This document shows, one piece after another, positions 1,730 to 50,450 of a stretch of DNA of 64,000 nt. The notes below the pieces were generated by a model, which worked only from the letters and a program-made list of their open reading frames with translations, did not search any database and was not told where the DNA came from. Positions within the stretch are counted from its first letter, which is position 1; each line of letters starts with the position of its first letter. This DNA is from Hormiphora californensis (taxonomy: Eukaryota; Animalia; Ctenophora): the NCBI GenBank assembly GCA_020137815.1, contig CM035355.1:186001-250000 (forward strand). Reading direction: 5' to 3'. Both the position numbers and the translations under genes were made by a program.

Positions 1730-2905
1730 CAGAACGTCAGCCACCAATGGGACCCCATCCTCCCCATTGTTGCATCCTCCTTCAACCCCCGTAGTGCCAA
1801 TATCCCCGGGTTCCAGTCTCCCTCCGTTCCCACTCCCCCTGCCACTAACCCGTCTCACGTATCACAGCTGTAGCCCCCCCCCCCTCTCCCTCCCTGCTCT
1901 CACCCCCTCTCATCCTACCACAACAACCCAGCTCACCACCCTATCTCATCTCCACCCTGTCACCCAATCCAATCACACCCTGGGTATTTATACCCACCAC
2001 ACAACCCATTCACTCTCTCCGCTGATGAAGATTACCCAAGTGTAATTGAAAGCTACGGTTAATTATATGTCGTGTTTACCTTGTCTATTGTTTCCTGGTA
2101 CTATCAGCCCTCTATGGATCTACAGCCTCCAGGAGACTCAGCATCCAACAGCCCACCCTCCATTTCTTCTTCCCCATTCTGCTCTCCACACCATCTTCCT
2201 TCCTCCATCTCCAGCGTAGAACGCCTCTCCTTCTTTCAATCCCTTCGGGAGACATGTGGTGTCCAAGCTGCTACCTCTACCAAACTTCTTCTCAAACTCC
2301 TGACGACCCTAGCGATCACCTCGTGCCACATCGCCTTCCTCAAATCTTGCAAGGACCATGGGTTCATAGTTCATACCCAAAGGTTTGCGCATACAGGACC
2401 CAGTTGGCACTCCACGTTCGACAGAAATCATGTTCAAGGCCTCCTCGCAGTGTTCATTCAACACTATCATGCTCCTTTTCTCAACCCTTACGATGTTCTT
2501 GTAGACTTTCACTTTACCCACCCTACTATCTCTGGACCCCTTCCCAAAACCCAACCCATCTGTCCCTCCCTTGACCCCTCCAAACTCGTAATCAATCTCC
2601 CAGGTACCGCCCTTAATCCAGGAGAAACTGAACTCCTCTCTCAAGGACTCAAGTTCACACCTTCTCCTACCTCCCATCCTGCCATCGACATCGCTCCCCG
2701 CATCCAACCCACCACCCAACGCCTCCCTCCCGGCATGAAAGCCGCTGCATCATGGGAGATCTCCCACATCCTATCCTCCTACACTCCTCCCTCTAAATCT
2801 TCGAACCTCACCACCAGCCAGCAAGAGGCTATTCGCACCCTCAAACAGAAACGTGGCACTCTTCGCATCCTCCCTGCAGACAAAGGAAATGCCACCGTAG
2901 TCATG
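1730..2905 (+). mobile_element. Penelope-like element fragment (pseudo-LTR plus N-terminal RT region, truncated after the DKG motif)
   Basis: ORF 2072-3025 contains VINL..LSQGLKF.P and NLT.SQ..A...LK....I.PADKGNATVVM, characteristic of the PLE N-terminus. Similarity stops at ~2905. A hammerhead lies upstream of the ORF. Confidence 0.88.
2019..2058 (+). ncRNA. Minimal type I hammerhead ribozyme of a Penelope pLTR
   Basis: ccg-CUGAUGA-a-gauuac/ccaagu/guaauu-GAAA-GC-UA-cgg: stem I ccg/cgg, 6-bp stem II, palindromic AGCU mini stem III. Confidence 0.8.
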
Positions 2906-3149
2906 TTCACGAAACATGGTGAACAGATCAAATCGAGCAAACGATCACACAACCGGCAGAGAGATGAATCAAGGATGCACGTGCAGTTTAAGGCTCAAGC
3001 TGGCAGGTTGCCAGGGTCCCTCTAGGGACAACACGTGCAAAATGCCATTTCCAGGAATTTCCAGGAAATAGGAACACTATTTGCCATATTTGGTAAAAAA
3101 ACGGGACACATCATTTCCCTATTTGCTTTAATAATAGTTTGATGTACTA

Positions 3150-25556: not shown

Positions 25557-27197
25557 GGTAATATGGTAGTTCTGGGCTGAACTTTTTCGACCGCTTTAAA
25601 GCGCTTTAAAGCGTTTGAGAAAGCGCTTTAAAGCGCTATAAAGCGCTTTAAAGCGGTACCGCTTTAAAGCACACCGCTTTAAAGCGCTTTTAAAGCGCTA
25701 AAAGCGCTTTAAAGCGATTCTTGTCGCGATTTAAAGCGCTTCCGAAAGCGCTATAAAGCGCTTTCGCAAGCGCTTTAAAGCGCTACCGCTATAAAGCGCT
25801 TTTTTTGTTCAAAATCCAAAAATAAAGCGCTTTAAAGCGCTTTAAAAGCGCTTTAAAAAGCGCTATAAAGCGCTTTTAAGAACGCTTTATAGCGCTTTAA
25901 AGCGCTTTTAGCGCTTTAAAGCGCTTTAAATCGTACAATAGCGCTTTAAAGCGCTTTTTAAAGCGCTTTTAAAAGCGGTCTAAAAAGCACTTTTAAAAAG
26001 TGGTTTAAAAAGCGCTACAAAGCGCTATAAAGCGCTTTTTAAAGCGCTATAAAGCGCTTTATAGCGCTATAAAAAGCGCTTTTGAAAGCGCTTTTAAGCG
26101 CTTTACAGCGCTTTAAAAAGCGCTTTATAGCGCTATAAAAAGGGTAGAAGGGCCACGGCCCTTGAACACCGCCACGTGGCGGTTTTAACCGCCACGTGGC
26201 CCCTGGACGTGGCGTCAATTCTCAGGACGTGGCGCCAATGAGCCTTTTTGGCGGTGTTCATGTGGCGTTAATAGTCGAAATTGGCGCTTCGAATTGGCGC
26301 TATTTTTCTATGGCCCCAGGGACGTGGCGTTGGCCCCACGACGTGGCGTCAATTTTTGATTGGCGGAGATGTCAAATTTTTTTGGCGCTTTCGGATGACG
26401 CCACACCCGAAAAATTCGAATCGCCAATTTGTTTTTTTGGCCTATCATTTGGCGCTAATTTTTGGCGCTAATTTTTTGGCGCCATGTAAATTGGCGCCAT
26501 ATAAACTGATACCAGAAACCCCCTAGTGGCCCCTAGGGACCCCCAGGAGGCGCTAGAGTAACCTAAAAGCCCCTAGAAGGCTCCAAGAGACCCCTAGAGG
26601 CCACTAGAGTTGATTAGAGTCCCTCAAAAGCCCAGAAAGATCGAATGCAGCCCCAGATGAGCACACAAGGCCCCCAAAAAGCCACTAGAGTTCTCTAGAG
26701 TCCCCTGAAACGCCCCAAGAGGACACCAGAGGTCCCTGAATGCCCGTAGAAGTCCCTAAAGACCCACAGAGGCATCAAGGATTGAACAGTTAAAAAAGAG
26801 CTGTGTTTATGTAAATATATCGCCTTGGCGCTTTCGAAAGCGCTTTTAAGCGCTTTAAAAAGCGCTTTAAAAAGCGCTTGATAAAGTGCTTTTTAGCGAA
26901 AGCGCTTTATAGCGCTACAAAAAGCGATTTATTTTTTGATTTTGAACAAAAAAAGCGCTTTATAGCGGTAGCGCTTTAAAGCGCTTGCGAAAGCGCTTTA
27001 TAGCGCTTTCGAAAGCGCTTTAAATCGCTACAAGAATCGCTTTAAAGCGCTTTTAGCGCTTTAAAAGCGCTTTAAAGCGGTGCGCTTTAAAGCGGTACCG
27101 CTTTAAAGCGCTTTATAGCGCTATAAAGCGCTTTCTCAAACGCTTTAAAGCGCTTTAAAGCGGTCGAAAATGTTCAGCCCAGAACTACCATATTACC
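25557..27197. mobile_element. Merlin-like element with AGCGCT/TTTAAA repeat arms
   Basis: TIR ggtaatatggtagttctgggctgaac; 8-bp TSD ccaaaaac (25549-56, 27198-205). Confidence 0.8.
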
Positions 27198-28646: not shown

Positions 28647-28776
28647 ATCTGAAACACGTTTGAACAATGTTATCTCTTTCATAAAGAGTCAAAATAATCA
28701 CATTCCATTCATTTCTCTCTCTCTCTCATTGTCTCTTTTACTGTTCAAACCTCTGACAGTGTGTACTGCCCCTAAT

Positions 28777-31700
28777 TGGGAAGTGAACGCGGAGGTGAAC
28801 GCGGAGGCGTTTAGATGTGTTTGTGGGAAGGAGTTCACGAGTCAGCGAGGTAGGAATATTCATCGGGGGAAGATGAAGTGTTTATTGAAGGTGGATGGGG
28901 CACCGCAGGGACCTGGTCCTGTAAGCTCGGGTGGGGAATTTGGCCCGGTCGACAACCACAGTGCTGAAGATACCACAGCCCTACTGAAGATGAACACTGA
29001 ATTAGTACCACCTACCTCAAGGAATAGACGAGTGAACTGGCCATCGGGGACAGATAGTAGATGGAAAGAGTACGAGGATTCGGTCTCTGAAAGGTTAAGG
29101 GATGGGCAGGCTGGCTGTTTGTACCAGGATAAGATGGATGTTCATTGTACGGTTGTGTATGAGGTTGGCCTAGAGATGTTTGGTCTGGTGGAGGTGAAGA
29201 AGGGTGGCCGCAAGGAACCCTTTCGGAGTAGGAGGTGTAGGTTGATTGAGTCCCTGGTGGCGGAGAGGAGAGTTGTGAGGGCGGAGAGGACGGTAGGTTG
29301 GGAAGGTAAGGTGAGGGAGATTGCTTCCCAGTTATCCAAGCTGAGGAATGCAGAGAGAAGGAGAGAGAACGAGAGAGAAAGGAAGCGACAGAGAGGTCTG
29401 TTCAAGAGGAGCCCCTTCAAAGCTGTGAAGGAAATCCTAGAGCCGAGTCCAGTTGGGGAACTGCACTGCTCGAAGGACCAGCTAGATCAACATCTCCAGA
29501 CTACCTACGGAGACCCTGAGCGGGGGAAGGCCCTCGGGGTACTAGCTGGGCTCCCAGACTTTGCACCTGAACCAGAGGTCGCTTTCAACATGAAGCCTAT
29601 CTCCTGGAAGGAACTTGTGGAACTTGAACAAGTCTGCTTTTAAGTACCGGAGATATCCAGAAAACTGTCGGTGGTTTGAAGGAGTGTACATTCCCAAGGG
29701 GGAAGGGGATTTCACTCCGGCGACTGGTAGACCGATTTCCTTAGGTAACGTCCAGGGAAAGATCTACCTAGGGACACTTGCGAGGCGTTTAACAGAGTTT
29801 GTGGTAGAGAATGGGTACGTGGATAGGCGGATCCAGAAAGGTGGTGTTCCGGGGGTAAGTGGATGTGTGGAACACTTCGGGGCTATGTGGGAGACCTTGA
29901 AGGACGCAAGGATTATGAGGCGCAAGGATTATGAGGCGGGACCCGATCGTGGACATAGTCCTGAGTTACTTTTCTGGAGTCTTTGGTAGGTTCAGTTCAA
30001 GGGAGGTAACATCGAACTGGCAACAGTTCGAGGTTGGAATATTCATGGGGTGTGTCATCTCCGTTATTTTGTTTGTACTGTTTATGAACATGGTATCGGA
30101 GTATCTGGCCATCAAAATACCGCGTAGTGTGGCCTACGTGAAAGATGGCACACCGGTCCCTCCTTTGAAGCTGTTCATGGATGACAGTTGCCTCGTCACT
30201 GCCACACAGAGTGACATGCAAGTTATGTTGTCGGTGTTTGGAGAGTTTGTGGAGTGGGCGAGATTTACTGTTAAGTCATCTAAGTCTCGGGCCCTGGTGT
30301 TGGAGGGAGGTAAGGTGGTGGAGTCGGTGAGTTTGTCGTTTGGGGGTGAGACGATCCCGAACGTTACTGAGAAGCCGATTAAGTTCCTTGGTCGGTGGAT
30401 TCGGGCTGATGTAAGGGACACCGTCGCCATCGAGGAAACAGCTCGCCAGCTGAAGTTGTGGATGGGACGGTTGGACGAGAGTGGATTATCGGGTTTGGAG
30501 AAGTGCTGGGGTTACCAGTATCTTGTTCTGCCTAAGATGAAGTGGCCTCTGGCAATCTACGACACCCCGTTGACCACCGTAGCAGCCTGGGAACAGTCAG
30601 TAAACAGTTTCCTGCGAAAGTGGTTGGGTGGAGGTCACACTCTTAGCAGACTTTGTCTGTTCAACTCGGAGTCTTCTGTACGGCTCCCGTTGAACAGCCT
30701 CCTTGACACCTGGAAAGTGGAGAAGTGTAGACTGCAGCAGACTTACAGTTCTTCACAGGATGAAGTTATCCTAGCGCTTCAGCCTCTTGTCAGGTCTGGT
30801 AGAAAGTGGAAAGCAGGGGAAGAGTTAGAGGAGGCAGTTAGTGATGTTCGGTGTGATGCAGTCCGCGGTATGATTCCTCCATACCCTAGGGCAGGGATTG
30901 GCTTCGGTGAGTGGCGAAAGCCTTGGGAGAAGCTGTCGGACAGCGAGAGGAGAGGTGTTGTGATTGAGCGAGTTCGAGAGAGGTTAGACCAGGTGAGGAC
31001 TGTAGAGACCATGCAGTTAGAGGTTCAGGGGATGTGGTTAGCTTGGAGGGAGGATGTGGTCTCGATGGAGTTAAGCTGGAGAAGCCTATTCGATATGAAG
31101 GAGGGAATGGTTGGCTTCATCCTAAGAGCAGTTTATGGAACCCTTGTCGTGCCGTCGCTTGCAAAGAAGTGGAAGGAAGGGGAAGACGGTCTTTGCAAGC
31201 TGTGTGGTGATGCTCCAGGGAGTATTCGCCATATTCTAACCGGCTGTAAGGTGGCTCTGGGTCAGGGGAGATACCGGTGGCGGCATGACAAGGTCCTGCG
31301 GCAGATAGGCGAGCAGGTAAAGTTTCACTGCGAGGTCCGTGCTAACGCTGCATCGAGGTCCACGAGAGGGTCCCGGAGTATCGAGTTCGTTGCAGAGGGT
31401 AAGAAGGGGAAGAAGAAGGGGAAGAAGAGGGTTAGTGGGTGTGGGATCCTGTCAGGCGCTAAGGACTGGGTTGTCCTCTCTGACATCGGAGGTCAGCTCA
31501 AGTTCCCGGCGGAGATCGCCCAGACCAGGTTAAGGCCTGATCTTGTTGTCTTCTCGCGAGAGGTAAAGACGGTGATCTGGTGGGAGCTCACTTGCCCTGC
31601 AGAAGAGAGAATAGGGGATGCCCATACTCTCAAGATTGAACGGTACACGGACCTTGAGAGGGAGTGTGAGTCTAATGGGTGGAGGTGTTTTAATATGGCG

Positions 31701-31883
31701 GTAGAGGTTGGGGCTCGAGGGCAGGTCGCGGATAGTCTGGTTAGAGCAGCTTCTCGTCTTGGGTTTAGAGGGAGGGGTCTTAGGAAGCTGGTTAAGGATA
31801 CGGGGAAAGAGGCTGCTCACTGTTCCATGTGGATCTACTTCCATTCGGCGAAGAAGGAGTGGGAGTACAGGAATGTGGAGTAG
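28777..31883 (+). pseudogene. Broken RT-RLE polyprotein ORF of the HERO-like element (frameshifts/deletions near 29620 and 29905-29945)
   Basis: Three track ORFs (28660-29643, 29615-29989, 29931-31883) are consecutive pieces of one protein: RPISLGNVQGKI, IQKGG, GIFMGCVIS, LFMDD, IKFLGRW. The SAPGP-type segment and RT motif A (first catalytic Asp) are missing; a short tandem duplication (cgcaaggattatgagg) lies at 29904-29938. Confidence 0.88.
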
Positions 31884-32023
31884 TGGAGGCAGTGAAGTGG
31901 TTCAGACTCGCCCTCGCAGTGGAGTGTGTGTTTGGTCGGGTGTACCCTTACTGTCATAAACCTGTCAAAGGGGGAGGCAGTGAGGGACCCCAGTCGACAC
32001 ATTCATTCCGGGCAACTGGGTAT

Positions 32024-32143
32024 AGATCGAACGGTGGTCTCAGATTATCGAGATTGCCGGGGCGCCTGACTTAGTACCTTGTGTACCCGTACCGAATTAA
32101 AGCCCCGAAACGGTGTCAGGTTTACGGCTGATGAGTTCGATCT
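32024..32143 (+). ncRNA. Candidate non-circularly permuted (pseudoknotted) hammerhead ribozyme in the retrotransposon 3' UTR; predicted cleavage after GUA at 32091
   Basis: CUGAUGA 32128-34; GAAA 32107-10; stem III ccgu/acgg; stem I ccg/cgg; accessory helices agaucgaac/guucgaucu, gguggucuc/gagauugcc, ggggc/gcccc, ccugac/gucagg. Pairings were found by eye. Confidence 0.7.
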
Positions 32144-32264
32144 GAGTCTCGGTTTCTGGCGAGTGTCCACATTTACCATCTTAGTGGACGGAGGGTCTCG
32201 GTCTTTCCGCTGTTCCGGATCTCTTGGTGTTTGGCGGAGTTAGGTGTGATTTGGTTGCGTTTAG

Positions 32265-32395
32265 GTTTGGAGGTTTGGAGGTTGGTGGAGGTTTGGTGGA
32301 GGTTTGGAGGTTGTTGGAGGTTTGGAGGTTGGTGGAGGTTTGGAGGTTTGGTGGAGGTTTGCTGGTTGTTTGGTTTGGAGGTTGGTTTTGCGGGG
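32265..32395 (+). repeat. G/T-rich (TTTGGAGG / TTGGTGGAGG)n tract in the 3' UTR of the retrotransposon
   Basis: Direct reading of the sequence. Confidence 0.85.
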
Positions 32396-32727
32396 TTTGT
32401 CTCGGTTCTTTGGGTTTGGTCTGGCAGCATGATTCATGTTCTCAACTTACTTACTGCCCCTAATCTTTCTCTCTATTTCTCAACCATGTTAGGAACAGTA
32501 GTATAGACACTAAGTCTGCACACATTTTGAGGGTGTCTGTTGACTATTTGCCAGCAGTCCTAGTGTGTTTCACCTTGTGTTGTGTCTCTTATTTGTGTGT
32601 AATTACTATCGGGGTTCATAAACTATGAACGTTTGTTAGCCTATCGCGTTACAGGTTTAAATCACCTCCCCCTCACCCTCGGCCGGGCGATTAAACTCCA
32701 GTTGGCTGGGAACAGCCAACTTCATAA

Positions 32728-32986
32728 GGGGAAACTCTAACTGAATGGCATCCCATTAATGAGGTCCCATCAACAGTAAAACTCTAACTGATAATGGACC
32801 ACAGTGATGGTTCTTTCTCTGTATTCTCTCTGTAGGCAGTACATTGGGCATGCCCGGGAATTGATTGATTGGGCGCACACACAGAGAGAATACAGAGAAA
32901 GAACCATCACTGTGGTCCATTATCAGTTAGAGTTTTACTGTTGATGGGATCCCATTAATGGGATGCCATTCAGTTAGAGTTTCCCC
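32728..32986. mobile_element. PIF/Harbinger-like palindromic MITE
   Basis: GGGGAAACTC termini; TAA TSD; empty site cttcataacg at ~7927. Confidence 0.8.
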
Positions 32987-33820
32987 TAACGCGCCAGTCT
33001 ACAAACGTTCATAGTCACTGCGCTGGCAAGCGCAAAGGTGACCACCACCTCCCCCAGCCGCGCGTGCCAGAAAGCAGTAATAAGTTTTTTCAGTTTTTAG
33101 CCAAAAATGGCATTTTGCGACGCCCATAGCGAGGCCCCCACTGCACCAATCGGTCTGAAATTTGGTATACAGTGTTTTAGTTTTAGAGTTATGACATTGT
33201 GAAAAAATCAATAAATGTCCGTGTCACCACACAGCAAAGTTAAAATTAAAATTAAAATGTGACAGTGAAAATGTGAAAACAGTTTGTGAAGAAGTAACAC
33301 CTGTTTAGAGGTCGTGTCGAGGCTCCAAACAGATGTAACAAAAACTGGAACAATTGGGAGGGGTCGGTGTAGTTATCGACTCTATTAATAGCGAGTTTTA
33401 ACTTTAGTGTTGCGTCCGCCGACACCATGACAGAAAGTAAAAGATAAGGATTAGGGCATGTTTAGTGTTTATACTGTACTGTATGCGAAAGAAAGTCTTC
33501 AATTTTTAATAAAGCAATACAAGCCGTGCATCAATTCTTGATTAAGCTAAAAGCACTGCAAGCGTTGCATTATGAAAAATTAATGTAAATTAATTTTAAA
33601 TGGCCGCTCAAAATTATTCAACGCACTCAGTAATAGTTCCATTCGCGCGCGACAGAGCCTATGACAGTGTCGTCGCGCAATACGTTTAAACATTTATGCA
33701 GTTTTTTTTATAAAAAACTTCCTACCTAACGGGATCCCAAATTTTAGGTGTTGTCTCGTGAAGAGATGGTGATATCTCTCCAGAGTTCTCCCCTCTGTCA
33801 AAGAAGAGCTAAAGTGCTAT

Positions 33821-47909: not shown

Positions 47910-50450
47910 AAGGTAAGGTAGCTGAGAGATGGAGTAAATGGGAGGTAGGGAAGCTGAGAGATGGAGTAAATAGGAGGTAAGGTAGCTGAGAGATGGAGTA
48001 AATGGGAGGTAGGGTAGCTGAGAGATGGAGTACTAAATGAGATGTAGGGAAGCTGAGAAATGGAGTAAATGGGGAGTCACCCCTCCCTGCCGACGTGGGT
48101 ATGTGGGTATAATGTCCTACGTGCCGACGAAATTGGGATGAGATCGCCGTCGGCACGTAGGACATTATAATGCATTATATAATGCATTATACCCCTATTT
48201 TCTGCCCTCCCTGCCGACGGACCTCCCTACCGATCGGCAGGGAGGGCCGTCGGCAGGGAGGACATTTTACCCCTCCTTTTACCCTCTGTACCGACGATCG
48301 GCAGGGAGGACATTTTACCCCTCCTTTTACCCTCTGTACCGACGATCGGCAGGGAGGACATTTTACCCCTCCTTTTACCCTCTGTACCGACGATCGGCAA
48401 GTAGGGCCGTCGGCAGGGAGGACATTTACCCCTCCTTTTCAGCCTCACTACCGACGATCGGCAGGGAGGACATTTACCCCTCCTTTTCACCCTCTGTACC
48501 GACGATCGGCAGGGAGGACATTTTACCCCTCCTTTTACCCTCTGTACCGACGATCGGCAAGTAGGGCCGTCGGCAGGGAGGACATTTACCCCTCCTTTTC
48601 ACCCTCTGTGCCGACGAAACCATAACCCAAACTTAGCCCAAACCATCGCCCTAACCATCACCCTAACCACCGCCCTAAGGCCTAACCACCACCCTAACCC
48701 TAACCCTAACCACCGCCCTAACCCTAACCCTAACCCTAACGATACTCAGAGGAACAATACACAGTTAACTCTTCGTATTTGGCCTGCTGGCCAAATTCTC
48801 GAGCTCACAGAAGGAGTGAAACGCCCTCCCTACCGATCGTCGGTACAGAGGGTAAAAGGAGGGGTGAAATATCCTCCCTGCCGATCGTCGGTACAGAGGG
48901 AGAATAGGAGGGGTAAATGTCCTCCCTGCCGAATACTCTCTCGGAGTCAGTTTTCGGCAGGGAGGGCGGAATATAGGGGTCAAATGTCCTACGTGCCGAC
49001 GGCGATCTCATCCCAATCTCGTCGGCACGTAGGACATTATACCCCTATATCCCGCCCTCCCTGCCGAATGACCTCCCTGCCGACCCGTCGGCAGGGAGGT
49101 CCGTCGGCAGGGAGGGCGGGTACCGGTGGTTAGGGCGGTGGTTAGGGTGATGGTTAGGGCGATGGTTTGGGTTATGGTTTCGTCGGCACAGAGGGTGAAA
49201 AGGAGGGGTAAATGTCCTCCCTGCCGATCGTCGGTAGTGAGGCTGAAAAGGAGGGGTAAATGTCCTCCCTGCCGACGGCCCTACTTGCCGATCGTCGGTA
49301 CAGAGGGTAAAAGGAGGGGTAAAATGTCCTCCCTGCCGATCGTCGGTACAGTGGGTAAAAGGAGGGGTAAAATGTCCTCCCTGCCGACCGTCGGCACAGA
49401 GGGTAAAAGGAGGGGTAAAATGTCCTCCCTGCCGACGGCCCTCCCTGCCGATCGGTAGGGAAGTCCGTCGGCAGGGAGGGCAGAAAATAGGGGTATAATG
49501 TCCTACGTGCCGACGGCGATCTCATCCCAATTTCGTCGGCACGTAGGACATTATACCCCCATATCCCGCCCTCCCTGCCGAATGACCTCCCTGCCGACCC
49601 GTCGGCAGGGAGGTCCGTCGGCAGGGAGGGGGTGACTCGTAAATGGGAGGTAGGAAAGCTGAGAGATGGATCAAATGGGAGGTAGGGTAGCTGAGGGATG
49701 GAGTAAATAGGAGGTAGGGAAGCTGAGAGATGGAGTAAATGGGAGGTAGGGTAGCTGAGAGATGGAGTAAATGGAAGGTAAGGTAGCTGAGAGATGGAGT
49801 AAATGGGAGGTAGGGAAGCTGAGAGATGGAGTAAATGGGAGGTAGGGTAGCTGAGAGATGGAGTAAATTGGAGGTAGGGAAGCTGAGAGATGGAGTAAAT
49901 GGGAGGTAGGGTAGCTGAGAGATGGAATAAATGAGAGGTAGGGAAGCTGAGAAATGGAGTAAATGGGAGGTAGGGTATCTGAGAGATGGAGTAAATGGCA
50001 GGTAGGGAAGCTGAGATATGGAGTAAATGGGAGGTAGGTAAGCTGAGAGATGGAGTAAATGGGAGGTAGGGGAGCTGAGAGATGTAGTAAATGGGAGGTA
50101 GGGTAGCTGAGAGATGGAGTAGATGAGGAGTAGGGTAGCGGAGAGATGGACTAGATTAGGGGTAGGGTAGCTGAAAGATGGAGTTGATGAGGGCTAGGGA
50201 AGCATAGAGATGGAAACGATTATGGATAAGGATTCCCTAATCGTTTCCATCTCTATGCTTCTCTAATAGGGAAGCTGAGAGATGGAGTAGATGAGGAGTA
50301 GGGTAGCTGAGAGATGGATTAGATAAGGGGTAGGGTAGCTGAAAGATGGAGTAGATGAGGGGTAGGGTAGCTGAAAGATGGAGTAGATGAGGGGTAGGGT
50401 AGCTGAGAGATCGAGTTGATGAGGGGTATGATAGCTGAGAGATGGAGTAG
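47910..50450. repeat. 32-bp tandem satellite (gggtagctgagagatggagtaaatgggaggta)n, interrupted by the 48074-49638 element
   Basis: Units visible at 47910-48073 and 49639-50450. Confidence 0.9.
48074..49638. mobile_element. MULE-like foldback element with CCCTGCCGAC repeats and a (TAACCC)n tract, inserted in a satellite array
   Basis: TIR gagtcacccc..ctccctgccgac; 9-bp flanks gtaaatggg; telomere-like repeat at ~48620-48740. Confidence 0.72.

Follow-up and report, generated by a model that had tools for sequence, protein, structure and literature searches.

Positions 32023-32144 of the 64,000-nt stretch of DNA analyzed here (the window) hold an RNA module that, as judged by sequence comparison, is real, conserved and family-wide in HERO-like retrotransposons. 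The module joins a hammerhead core in S-G-C block order to an upstream splint that replaces stem II, and is predicted to self-cleave after A32091, likely as part of a Penelope-like cycle; taken whole, this reading has an even chance of being right. Cleavage by hammerhead chemistry, predicted from the letters, is by itself very probable. If the module cleaves, it would overturn the assumption, found in the accessible text of Eckert et al. 2023 (PMC10085705), that hammerhead wiring is fully covered by three blocks in six orders; it would also extend the tolerance of the core to a missing 10.1-11.1 pair and to strands crossing over at A9/G12, and would explain why descriptors and Rfam missed a ribozyme common in animal repeats.

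Architecture of the splinted module

The window copy is ordered S-G-C, with the cut-site strand followed by the GAAA strand and the CUGANGA strand (Table 1). A preliminary description had proposed a non-circular hammerhead order, which the S-G-C arrangement bears out and which is the block order of type SGC of Eckert et al. The seven pairings it placed are all found there with zero mismatches: helix A (32024-32/32135-43, 9 bp, or 10 bp counting one G-U); the splint hairpin (32033-41/32050-58, 9 bp, three G-U among them), which is the sole separator of the two bridge arms; helix B (32059-63/32102-06); the extension helix (32065-70/32115-20); stem III (32087-90/32110-13); and stem I (32092-94/32125-27). 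Its assignment of the core letters, CUGAUGA at 32128-34, GAAA at 32107-10, U32090 and A32091 as H17, also holds.

Table 1. Coordinates of the splinted module and of its host element in the window
Feature	Position	Strand	Remarks
Splint 5' arm (helix A)	32023..32032	+	Pairs with 32135-32144 directly after CUGAUGA
Splint hairpin, 32033-41/32050-58	32033..32058	+	No spacer to helix A or helix B
Splint 3' arm (helix B)	32059..32063	+	Pairs with 32102-32106 directly before GAAA
Extension helix of stem III, 5' strand	32064..32070	+	Partner is 32115-32121
Extension helix of stem III, 3' strand	32115..32121	+	
Variable loop, extension helix to stem III	32071..32086	+	Sister clade has a k-turn-like loop instead
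Block S	32087..32094	+	Stem III 5' strand, H17 = A32091 (predicted cut 32091/32092), stem I 5' strand
Block G	32102..32113	+	Helix B 3' strand, GAAA 32107-32110, stem III 3' strand
Block C	32125..32144	+	Stem I 3' strand, CUGAUGA 32128-32134, helix A 3' strand
HERO-like (R2-superfamily, restriction-like endonuclease) non-LTR ORF, 5'-truncated	28777..31883	+	Zinc finger, RT, zinc knuckle, endonuclease
Target-site duplication, left copy, 13 bp	28764..28776	+	Identical to 32452-32464
Target-site duplication, right copy, 13 bp	32452..32464	+	
G/T-rich tandem repeat in element tail	32261..32386	+	
Conserved 3'-end motif TCTCAACT	32440..32447	+	L002-L006 end at the same motif

Helix B may take over the position of stem II by stacking on the G12-A9 pair, and helix A may stack on the splint hairpin, with A9 crossing over into helix A to give a four-way junction. 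If this arrangement is true and the module is active, a four-way junction suffices for a hammerhead core with no strand pair forming stem II. A ribozyme of this splint-dependent kind would be a ready-made switch, its cutting requiring a separate upstream strand.

Two competing registers pointed out in the preliminary description, 32087-91/32123-27 and 32091-94/32111-14, both exist. Stem I measures 3 bp in the window lineage, and the competing hairpin wins in the energy model; the minimum-energy fold, computed by a program that cannot fold pseudoknots, takes a hairpin of the 32087-91/32123-27 type over the crossing stems. This fold forms helix A, the hairpin and helix B and scores z = -2.1, with 6 of 200 shuffles equally stable. 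An Rfam search over 32024-32143 returned no match at E-values up to 10.

A one-pair direct stem II, G32135-C32106 (and C32032-G32059), can form in the window copy. Conservation of this 1-bp direct stem II at G32135-C32106 was considered and rejected, the pair being possible in just 2 of the 22 distinct relatives; as far as these sequences indicate, its availability to the window copy is incidental.

Conservation and covariation among relatives

The search descriptor, comprising the core, stems I and III, helices A and B and the hairpin, was written after the window site was seen. Because it was composed with that site already known, the independent evidence comes from the relatives, which are 79 metagenome loci collected via a C-terminal-region profile (the best 80 of 285 confirmed stretches). 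Within the window the descriptor matches once, at the module site, compared with 0 matches in 100 dinucleotide shuffles of both strands. Among the relatives' tails it matches 25 of 69, compared with 2 weak matches in 200 shuffle rounds; together with the window these make 26 matches, all on the coding strand and downstream of the ORF, and the opposite strand of the loci gave 0 matches in 314 kb. G-rich DNA commonly forms short helices, which would favor a chance pattern within one sequence; the shuffle counts and the covariation described below refute that reading at the level of sequence, and its probability is practically nil.

A sequence-only model built from 19 rows, with a cut-off of E <=0.0005, recovered 35 loci plus the window, and adding L001 brings the module to 36 of the 79 loci (drawn from the best 80 of 285 stretches). 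Both CUGANGA and GAAA are kept in 15 of the 17 non-training loci found by this model, several of them near-copies of training rows. Core changes occur in two loci (L068 and L077), and the module is cut short or interrupted in two (L028 and L044).

Across 19 of 19 aligned rows, which were chosen by a descriptor demanding the core and have a mean identity of 51%, C3-G8/A9, G12-A15.1 and U16.1 are invariant. Position N7 is U in 16, C in 5 and G in 1 of the 22 distinct matches, and H17 is A, C or U at about equal frequency in the distinct descriptor matches. With N7 free, H17 limited to A, C or U and the other core letters fixed, the pattern is the one that hammerheads allow.

This letter pattern bears on whether the module cuts at all. 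In R2-type elements, 3' UTR structures serve template recognition. A hammerhead-derived or hammerhead-like fold that does not cut, acting as a binding or packaging structure for the element's protein, would suit such a use, which the accessible text of PMC12222951 also describes, and would agree with both the lack of a direct stem II and the inserted copies being all intact across the site. We consider it distinctly improbable, since the fixed and free letters match hammerhead chemistry letter for letter, a pattern that a binding structure would have no reason to keep.

The covariation alignment was fitted to sequence, not structure, takes its columns from L040 and includes 8 partial or junk rows. 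The splinted structure is paired in 89.7% of 759 cells, compared with 65.6% in shuffled and 35-41% in slid versions, and double changes are found in 25 of 29 pairs; shuffle tests of this kind are inflated by relatedness, the changes still being many, of several pair types and among proteins of 32-60% identity. Helix A has double changes in 8 of 8 counted pairs with 91% of cells paired, the splint hairpin in 6 of 7 counted pairs, and helix B in 4 of 5 pairs, with G-C or G-U as its first pair in all 31 rows that have letters there. The first pair of stem I forms in all 31 rows and shows 14 double changes, and stem III is 95.8% paired with double changes in 3 of 4 pairs. Pairs within the descriptor minimum are paired by construction; those beyond it also hold. 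Positions 6-9 of helix A are paired in 20-22 of 22 matches and position 5 of stem I in 21 of 22, and the extension helix, although the descriptor does not demand it, reaches at least 5 bp in 20 of 22 distinct descriptor matches.

A direct stem II is paired in 43.4% of cells, compared with 41.1% after shuffling, with its first pair in 2 of 34 rows. The earlier proposal that an upstream bridge supplies both halves of stem II is thus upheld, every helix being backed by covariation and the direct stem II rejected (43% versus 41% shuffled); the homolog alignment suggested with it likewise retains CUGANGA, GAAA and UH, with helices that covary across relatives. Among the 22 distinct matches, 13 have U at position 10.1, 6 have C, 2 have G and 1 has A; at 11.1, 21 of the 22 have C, whose partner is a splint G. 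The G10.1-C11.1 pair of published hammerhead patterns is missing in most copies of the module, so the core may not fold actively.

In a quick tree, from which 3 of the 79 loci with short matches (L036 among them) were omitted, the module occurs in two well-supported sister clades (support 100 and 95) and in none of the 23 outer-group rows. Six loci of the window's clade (L008-L011, L015 and L024) have no module in 281-1004 nt of tail, where most of these tails are too short to judge, the module lying up to 760 nt out in relatives. Ctenophore-named proteins fall in the window's clade, which is placed with weak support (75) as sister to a clade that includes proteins of fish and crinoids. Among named proteins, the closest, at 57% identity, belong to the ctenophores Bolinopsis and Mnemiopsis. 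Rfam searches at E 0.05 on 20 loci, 4 of them with the module, gave neither a hammerhead nor any other relevant match. The viral_contigs set yielded no related ORF, and 0 of 52 pattern matches there were confirmed, the patterns being narrow and their failure not proof of absence. A further narrow pattern picked up 5 prokaryote and 2 viral sequences; they showed no HERO ORF, and against the module they scored 13-17 bits, in partial matches driven by the pattern, or gave no score.

A k-turn-like GA/GA loop on stem III occurs in 11 of the 16 rows of the sister clade and in none of the 6 from the window's clade; the features of a k-turn (a 3-nt bulge, then tandem G-A/A-G pairs) are absent from the stem III extension of the window copy. 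The ctenophore-associated branch is characterized by the missing k-turn, a short stem I and a long tail leading to a distinct end motif. Variation was read from contigs of four public runs (two organisms and two metagenomes), counting letters at >=5%. Of 31 variable places in 31700-32300 (601 nt, four runs), 0 fall within 31995-32170, where the sole listed indel is a 9-nt loss in the variable loop (two runs); in single low-depth X9 contigs the module is replaced or skipped. L036 shares the short stem I, which likely has a bulged A, and we therefore regard that stem as a lineage trait. The preliminary description had called this copy possibly weak, and was right about the short stem I; decay does not follow, the short stem being a trait of a sub-lineage that includes L036 and 31995-32170 carrying no listed substitution in the four runs.

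Several outer-clade loci that have no hammerhead (L043:3478-3612, L046:1505-1639, L061:3259-3393 and L064:3190-3324, + strand) have a different common multi-stem structure just 3' of the ORF, composed of a closing helix, a GCAUAG motif, a long hairpin and further hairpins. It has no Rfam match at E 0.05 in L043, L046 and L061, and may be another ribozyme or a 3' signal in the same place. In one outer sub-clade (L059, L060, L062, L074 and L075), the DNA 3' of the endonuclease match is coding-like rather than UTR-like and is 66% similar over 248 nt between L060 and L074, which hints at an extra C-terminal domain in the proteins of this sub-clade.

Host element, its ends and the predicted cut

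With a single ORF, a target duplication and 5' truncation, the host is an R2-superfamily (restriction-like endonuclease) non-LTR retrotransposon. The window ORF starts inside the N-terminus at 28777, is interrupted twice, near 29613 and at 29923-29943, by internal deletions that change the frame, matches Pfam RVT_1 (RT) and is 95-99% identical in three pieces to the intact near-copy P0050. P0050 matches R2 and LINE proteins among PDB structures in the RT region only, R2 being the nearest solved relative. Two further motifs in the ORF were recognized by eye and are those we take to be a zinc knuckle and a PD-(D/E)xK-type endonuclease. The HERO label is plausible, drawn from the motifs and from named fish and echinoderm neighbors; HERO hosts listed in the accessible part of PMC9004415 include fish and crinoid.

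The 13-bp repeat flanking the copy is taken as host DNA because close intact proteins have another N-terminus. An alternative in which the repeat is element sequence and the copy is circularly permuted in the ORF start was rejected, as four near-identical intact proteins differ N-terminally; the in-frame continuity of ATG 32429 with the 5' end across the repeat was likewise dismissed as a chance frame match. Tandem duplications of 12 and 16 nt, at 28779-28807 (the 5' junction) and 29905-29938 (the internal deletion), are consistent with slippage or template switching at insertion.

In the window copy the module lies 140-260 nt past the ORF stop. The TCTCAACT motif is likely the start of reverse transcription; the four letters after it match the beginning of the target duplication. 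L003, L004, L005 and L006 are alike up to the end motif and then diverge four ways, and in each of the pairs L026/L027, L020/L022, L042/L053, L040/L077 and L013/L014 the two loci are likewise alike up to a fixed position beyond the module. The predicted cut site is spanned intact in every genomic copy. A role in 3'-end processing, as the preliminary description had supposed, does not agree with these ends: the inserted window copy extends about 355 nt past the cut to the conserved end motif and the 13-bp duplication, and 7 of 36 module loci (L001, L006, L018, L033, L038, L040 and L052) run on head-to-tail into the N-terminus of the next ORF.

L065 shows the start of the same head-to-tail junction by eye, and the other module loci (29 of 36) have no downstream ORF match, several being too short to tell. 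Over 230-620 nt, the junction regions of L038, L052, L040, L033 and L018 align at about 70% between families, and L001 and L006 have a common motif right after the element end; the junction thus behaves as inherited element sequence. The run-on contigs could also come from repeat assembly in the metagenomes or from insertion of the element next to itself, both of which are possible. Among the sequences compared, none began exactly at the cut, and neither a circle nor a ligated junction turned up. A scan of the window revealed no second copy of the element and no solo tail.

A short, conserved inverted-repeat stretch is found about 55-90 nt after CUGANGA in L018, L033, L038, L040, L052 and L065, and just after the end motif in L001 and L006; it marks the start of the 5' UTR after the junction and is a candidate promoter or protein-binding site. 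L013 and L014 share a 3' UTR of 700-780 nt with several hairpins, 50-420 nt past the ORF end, which contains a second CUGACGA followed by a short hairpin, with no GAAA.

With the cut placed between the ORF and the start of copying, the core conserved and the copies whole, the template must be uncut, rejoined or bridged. A Penelope-like cycle is preferred because it is the simplest reading of whole copies across a conserved cut site. Transcription would run through a head-to-tail master, two successive ribozymes would cut the transcript to unit length, and the unit-length RNA would close into a circle by ligation. Target-primed reverse transcription would then start at the internal end motif, cross the rejoined site and enter the ORF; more than one round would renew tandem masters, and less than one round would yield 5'-truncated copies such as that in the window. 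Given cleavage, ligation to a circle and copying from the end motif are slightly favored, and the cut-circularize-copy cycle as a whole is evenly poised. For the wider claim that HERO-like elements from the ctenophore-associated clade to fish share an active four-segment hammerhead, a four-way junction and circular-RNA replication with internal priming, our confidence falls a little short of even.

Precedent for these steps comes from Penelope, for which a cut-circularize-copy cycle was proposed (Cervera and de la Pena 2014, PMC4209133) and for one element of which internal initiation of reverse transcription was shown in vitro (PMC11167929). A circular-RNA life cycle has so far been proposed only for Penelope-like elements and retrozymes. 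An R2-superfamily LINE would gain a ribozyme inside its inserted sequence together with a testable circular-template cycle, which bears on start-site choice by R2-type proteins, now used for gene insertion.

Bridging could instead occur on a linear template: the module would cleave, the helices would hold the pieces, the reverse transcriptase would jump the nick, and tandems would arise by end-to-end template jumps. Template jumps usually add or lose letters, and the S block has no such added or lost letters in aligned copies; nick-jumping also offers no clear benefit that would keep a catalytic core selected across clades. Stems I and III, helices A and B and the extension helix all join the pieces flanking the cut, as this reading needs, and the title of Bibillo and Eickbush 2002 places the R2 reverse transcriptase on non-continuous templates. 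On balance, we judge it quite unlikely.

The run-on loci, where the start of the ORF that follows is 170-1000 nt downstream of the module, would also fit cleavage that sets the 5' end of the next unit, like the R2 HDV-like ribozyme. An upstream copy in a tandem master would free the element from read-through RNA, while slow or protein-blocked cutting would leave the downstream copy whole often enough for insertion. R2 and L1Tc have 5' HDV-like ribozymes (PMC6765202), and type-SGC ribozymes are slow, at 0.007-0.13 per minute (PMC10085705). Such a role is unlikely, as it asks two identical ribozymes on one RNA to act differently and still requires internal initiation at a fixed site.

Comparison with known ribozymes and other features of the window

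The module has the CUGANGA, GAAA and UH letters of hammerheads beside their stems, with stems I and III covarying. It lacks the direct stem II (10.1-11.1) of the class, both strands pairing with the splint instead, and belongs to none of types I, II and III, its S-G-C order being non-circular and matching no Rfam model. Type SGC (HRIMA-1 and variants) was defined, with cleavage validated, by Eckert, Friedrich, Weinberg and Weinberg 2023 (PMC10085705). The preliminary description had cited an Eckert report in NAR 2023 of non-circular permutations in eukaryotes; the paper and the permutations exist, and the accessible text derives the non-circular forms from metatranscriptomes and metagenomes rather than eukaryotes, with none in the genomes of known organisms bar one bacterial GCS candidate. 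Type SGC itself is reported there only from metatranscriptomes, as presumed circular RNAs.

Type SGC and the HERO module share the S-G-C order, all core letters, the crossing of stems I and III and a short linker from stem I to the strand before GAAA. In type SGC, stem II is direct, between blocks G and C, whereas in the HERO module both arms pair with a fourth, upstream segment. The published type-SGC patterns demand a direct stem II (CUGAUGAG, CGAAA and 2-6 further pairs) with G-C at 10.1-11.1, and position 10.1 in the HERO module is mostly U or C. The module is not filed as type SGC because the direct stem II required there is absent here. An extra helix in type SGC ties the free sides of stems I and II, a job that the HERO splint and extension helix may do. 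The module likely works like type SGC. The two also differ in setting, a eukaryotic retrotransposon with a module of about 120 nt as against metatranscriptomic sequences. Relative to the accessible text of PMC10085705, the splint and the eukaryotic retrotransposon setting are new.

Penelope-like elements and retrozymes resemble the HERO element in having a hammerhead in a retroelement terminal repeat, head-to-tail copies, a proposed cut-circularize-copy cycle and an internal RT start (PMC4209133, PMC6765202, PMC11167929, bioRxiv 10.64898/2026.07.22.740005). Their hammerheads, in contrast, have a normal stem II and follow the circularly permuted order of type I (or III), many of them acting as dimers, and their hosts encode a GIY-YIG nuclease or no ORF, unlike the R2-type RT and restriction-like endonuclease of HERO. 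The HDV-like ribozymes of R2 and L1Tc (PMC6765202) are likewise a self-cleaving RNA class, as predicted here, in a non-LTR element; they are of another class and lie at the 5' end, where the cut defines the element end, whereas the cut predicted in HERO falls inside the inserted sequence. Ribozyme-bearing elements named in the accessible parts of reviews and papers are R2, L1Tc, schistosome SINEs, Penelope and retrozymes, with no mention there of HERO. A literature search, of incomplete coverage and mostly without subscription journals and Repbase reports, found no ribozyme in HERO elements and no such splinted wiring.

Elsewhere in the window, a self-complementary repeat of 10-22 nt based on AAAGCGCTTT forms arrays at 25592-26142 and 26828-27162; these give many spurious Rfam hairpin-RNA matches and are likely a MITE or satellite. 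Three stop-free long frames, at 2063-3025 (+), 48405-49133 (+) and 49172-50155 (-), have strong GC skew and no Pfam match and are probably low-complexity or repeat DNA. To the right of the insertion, an imperfect inverted repeat of about 260 nt (32727-32987), with an 85% self-match, is probably a non-autonomous DNA transposon.
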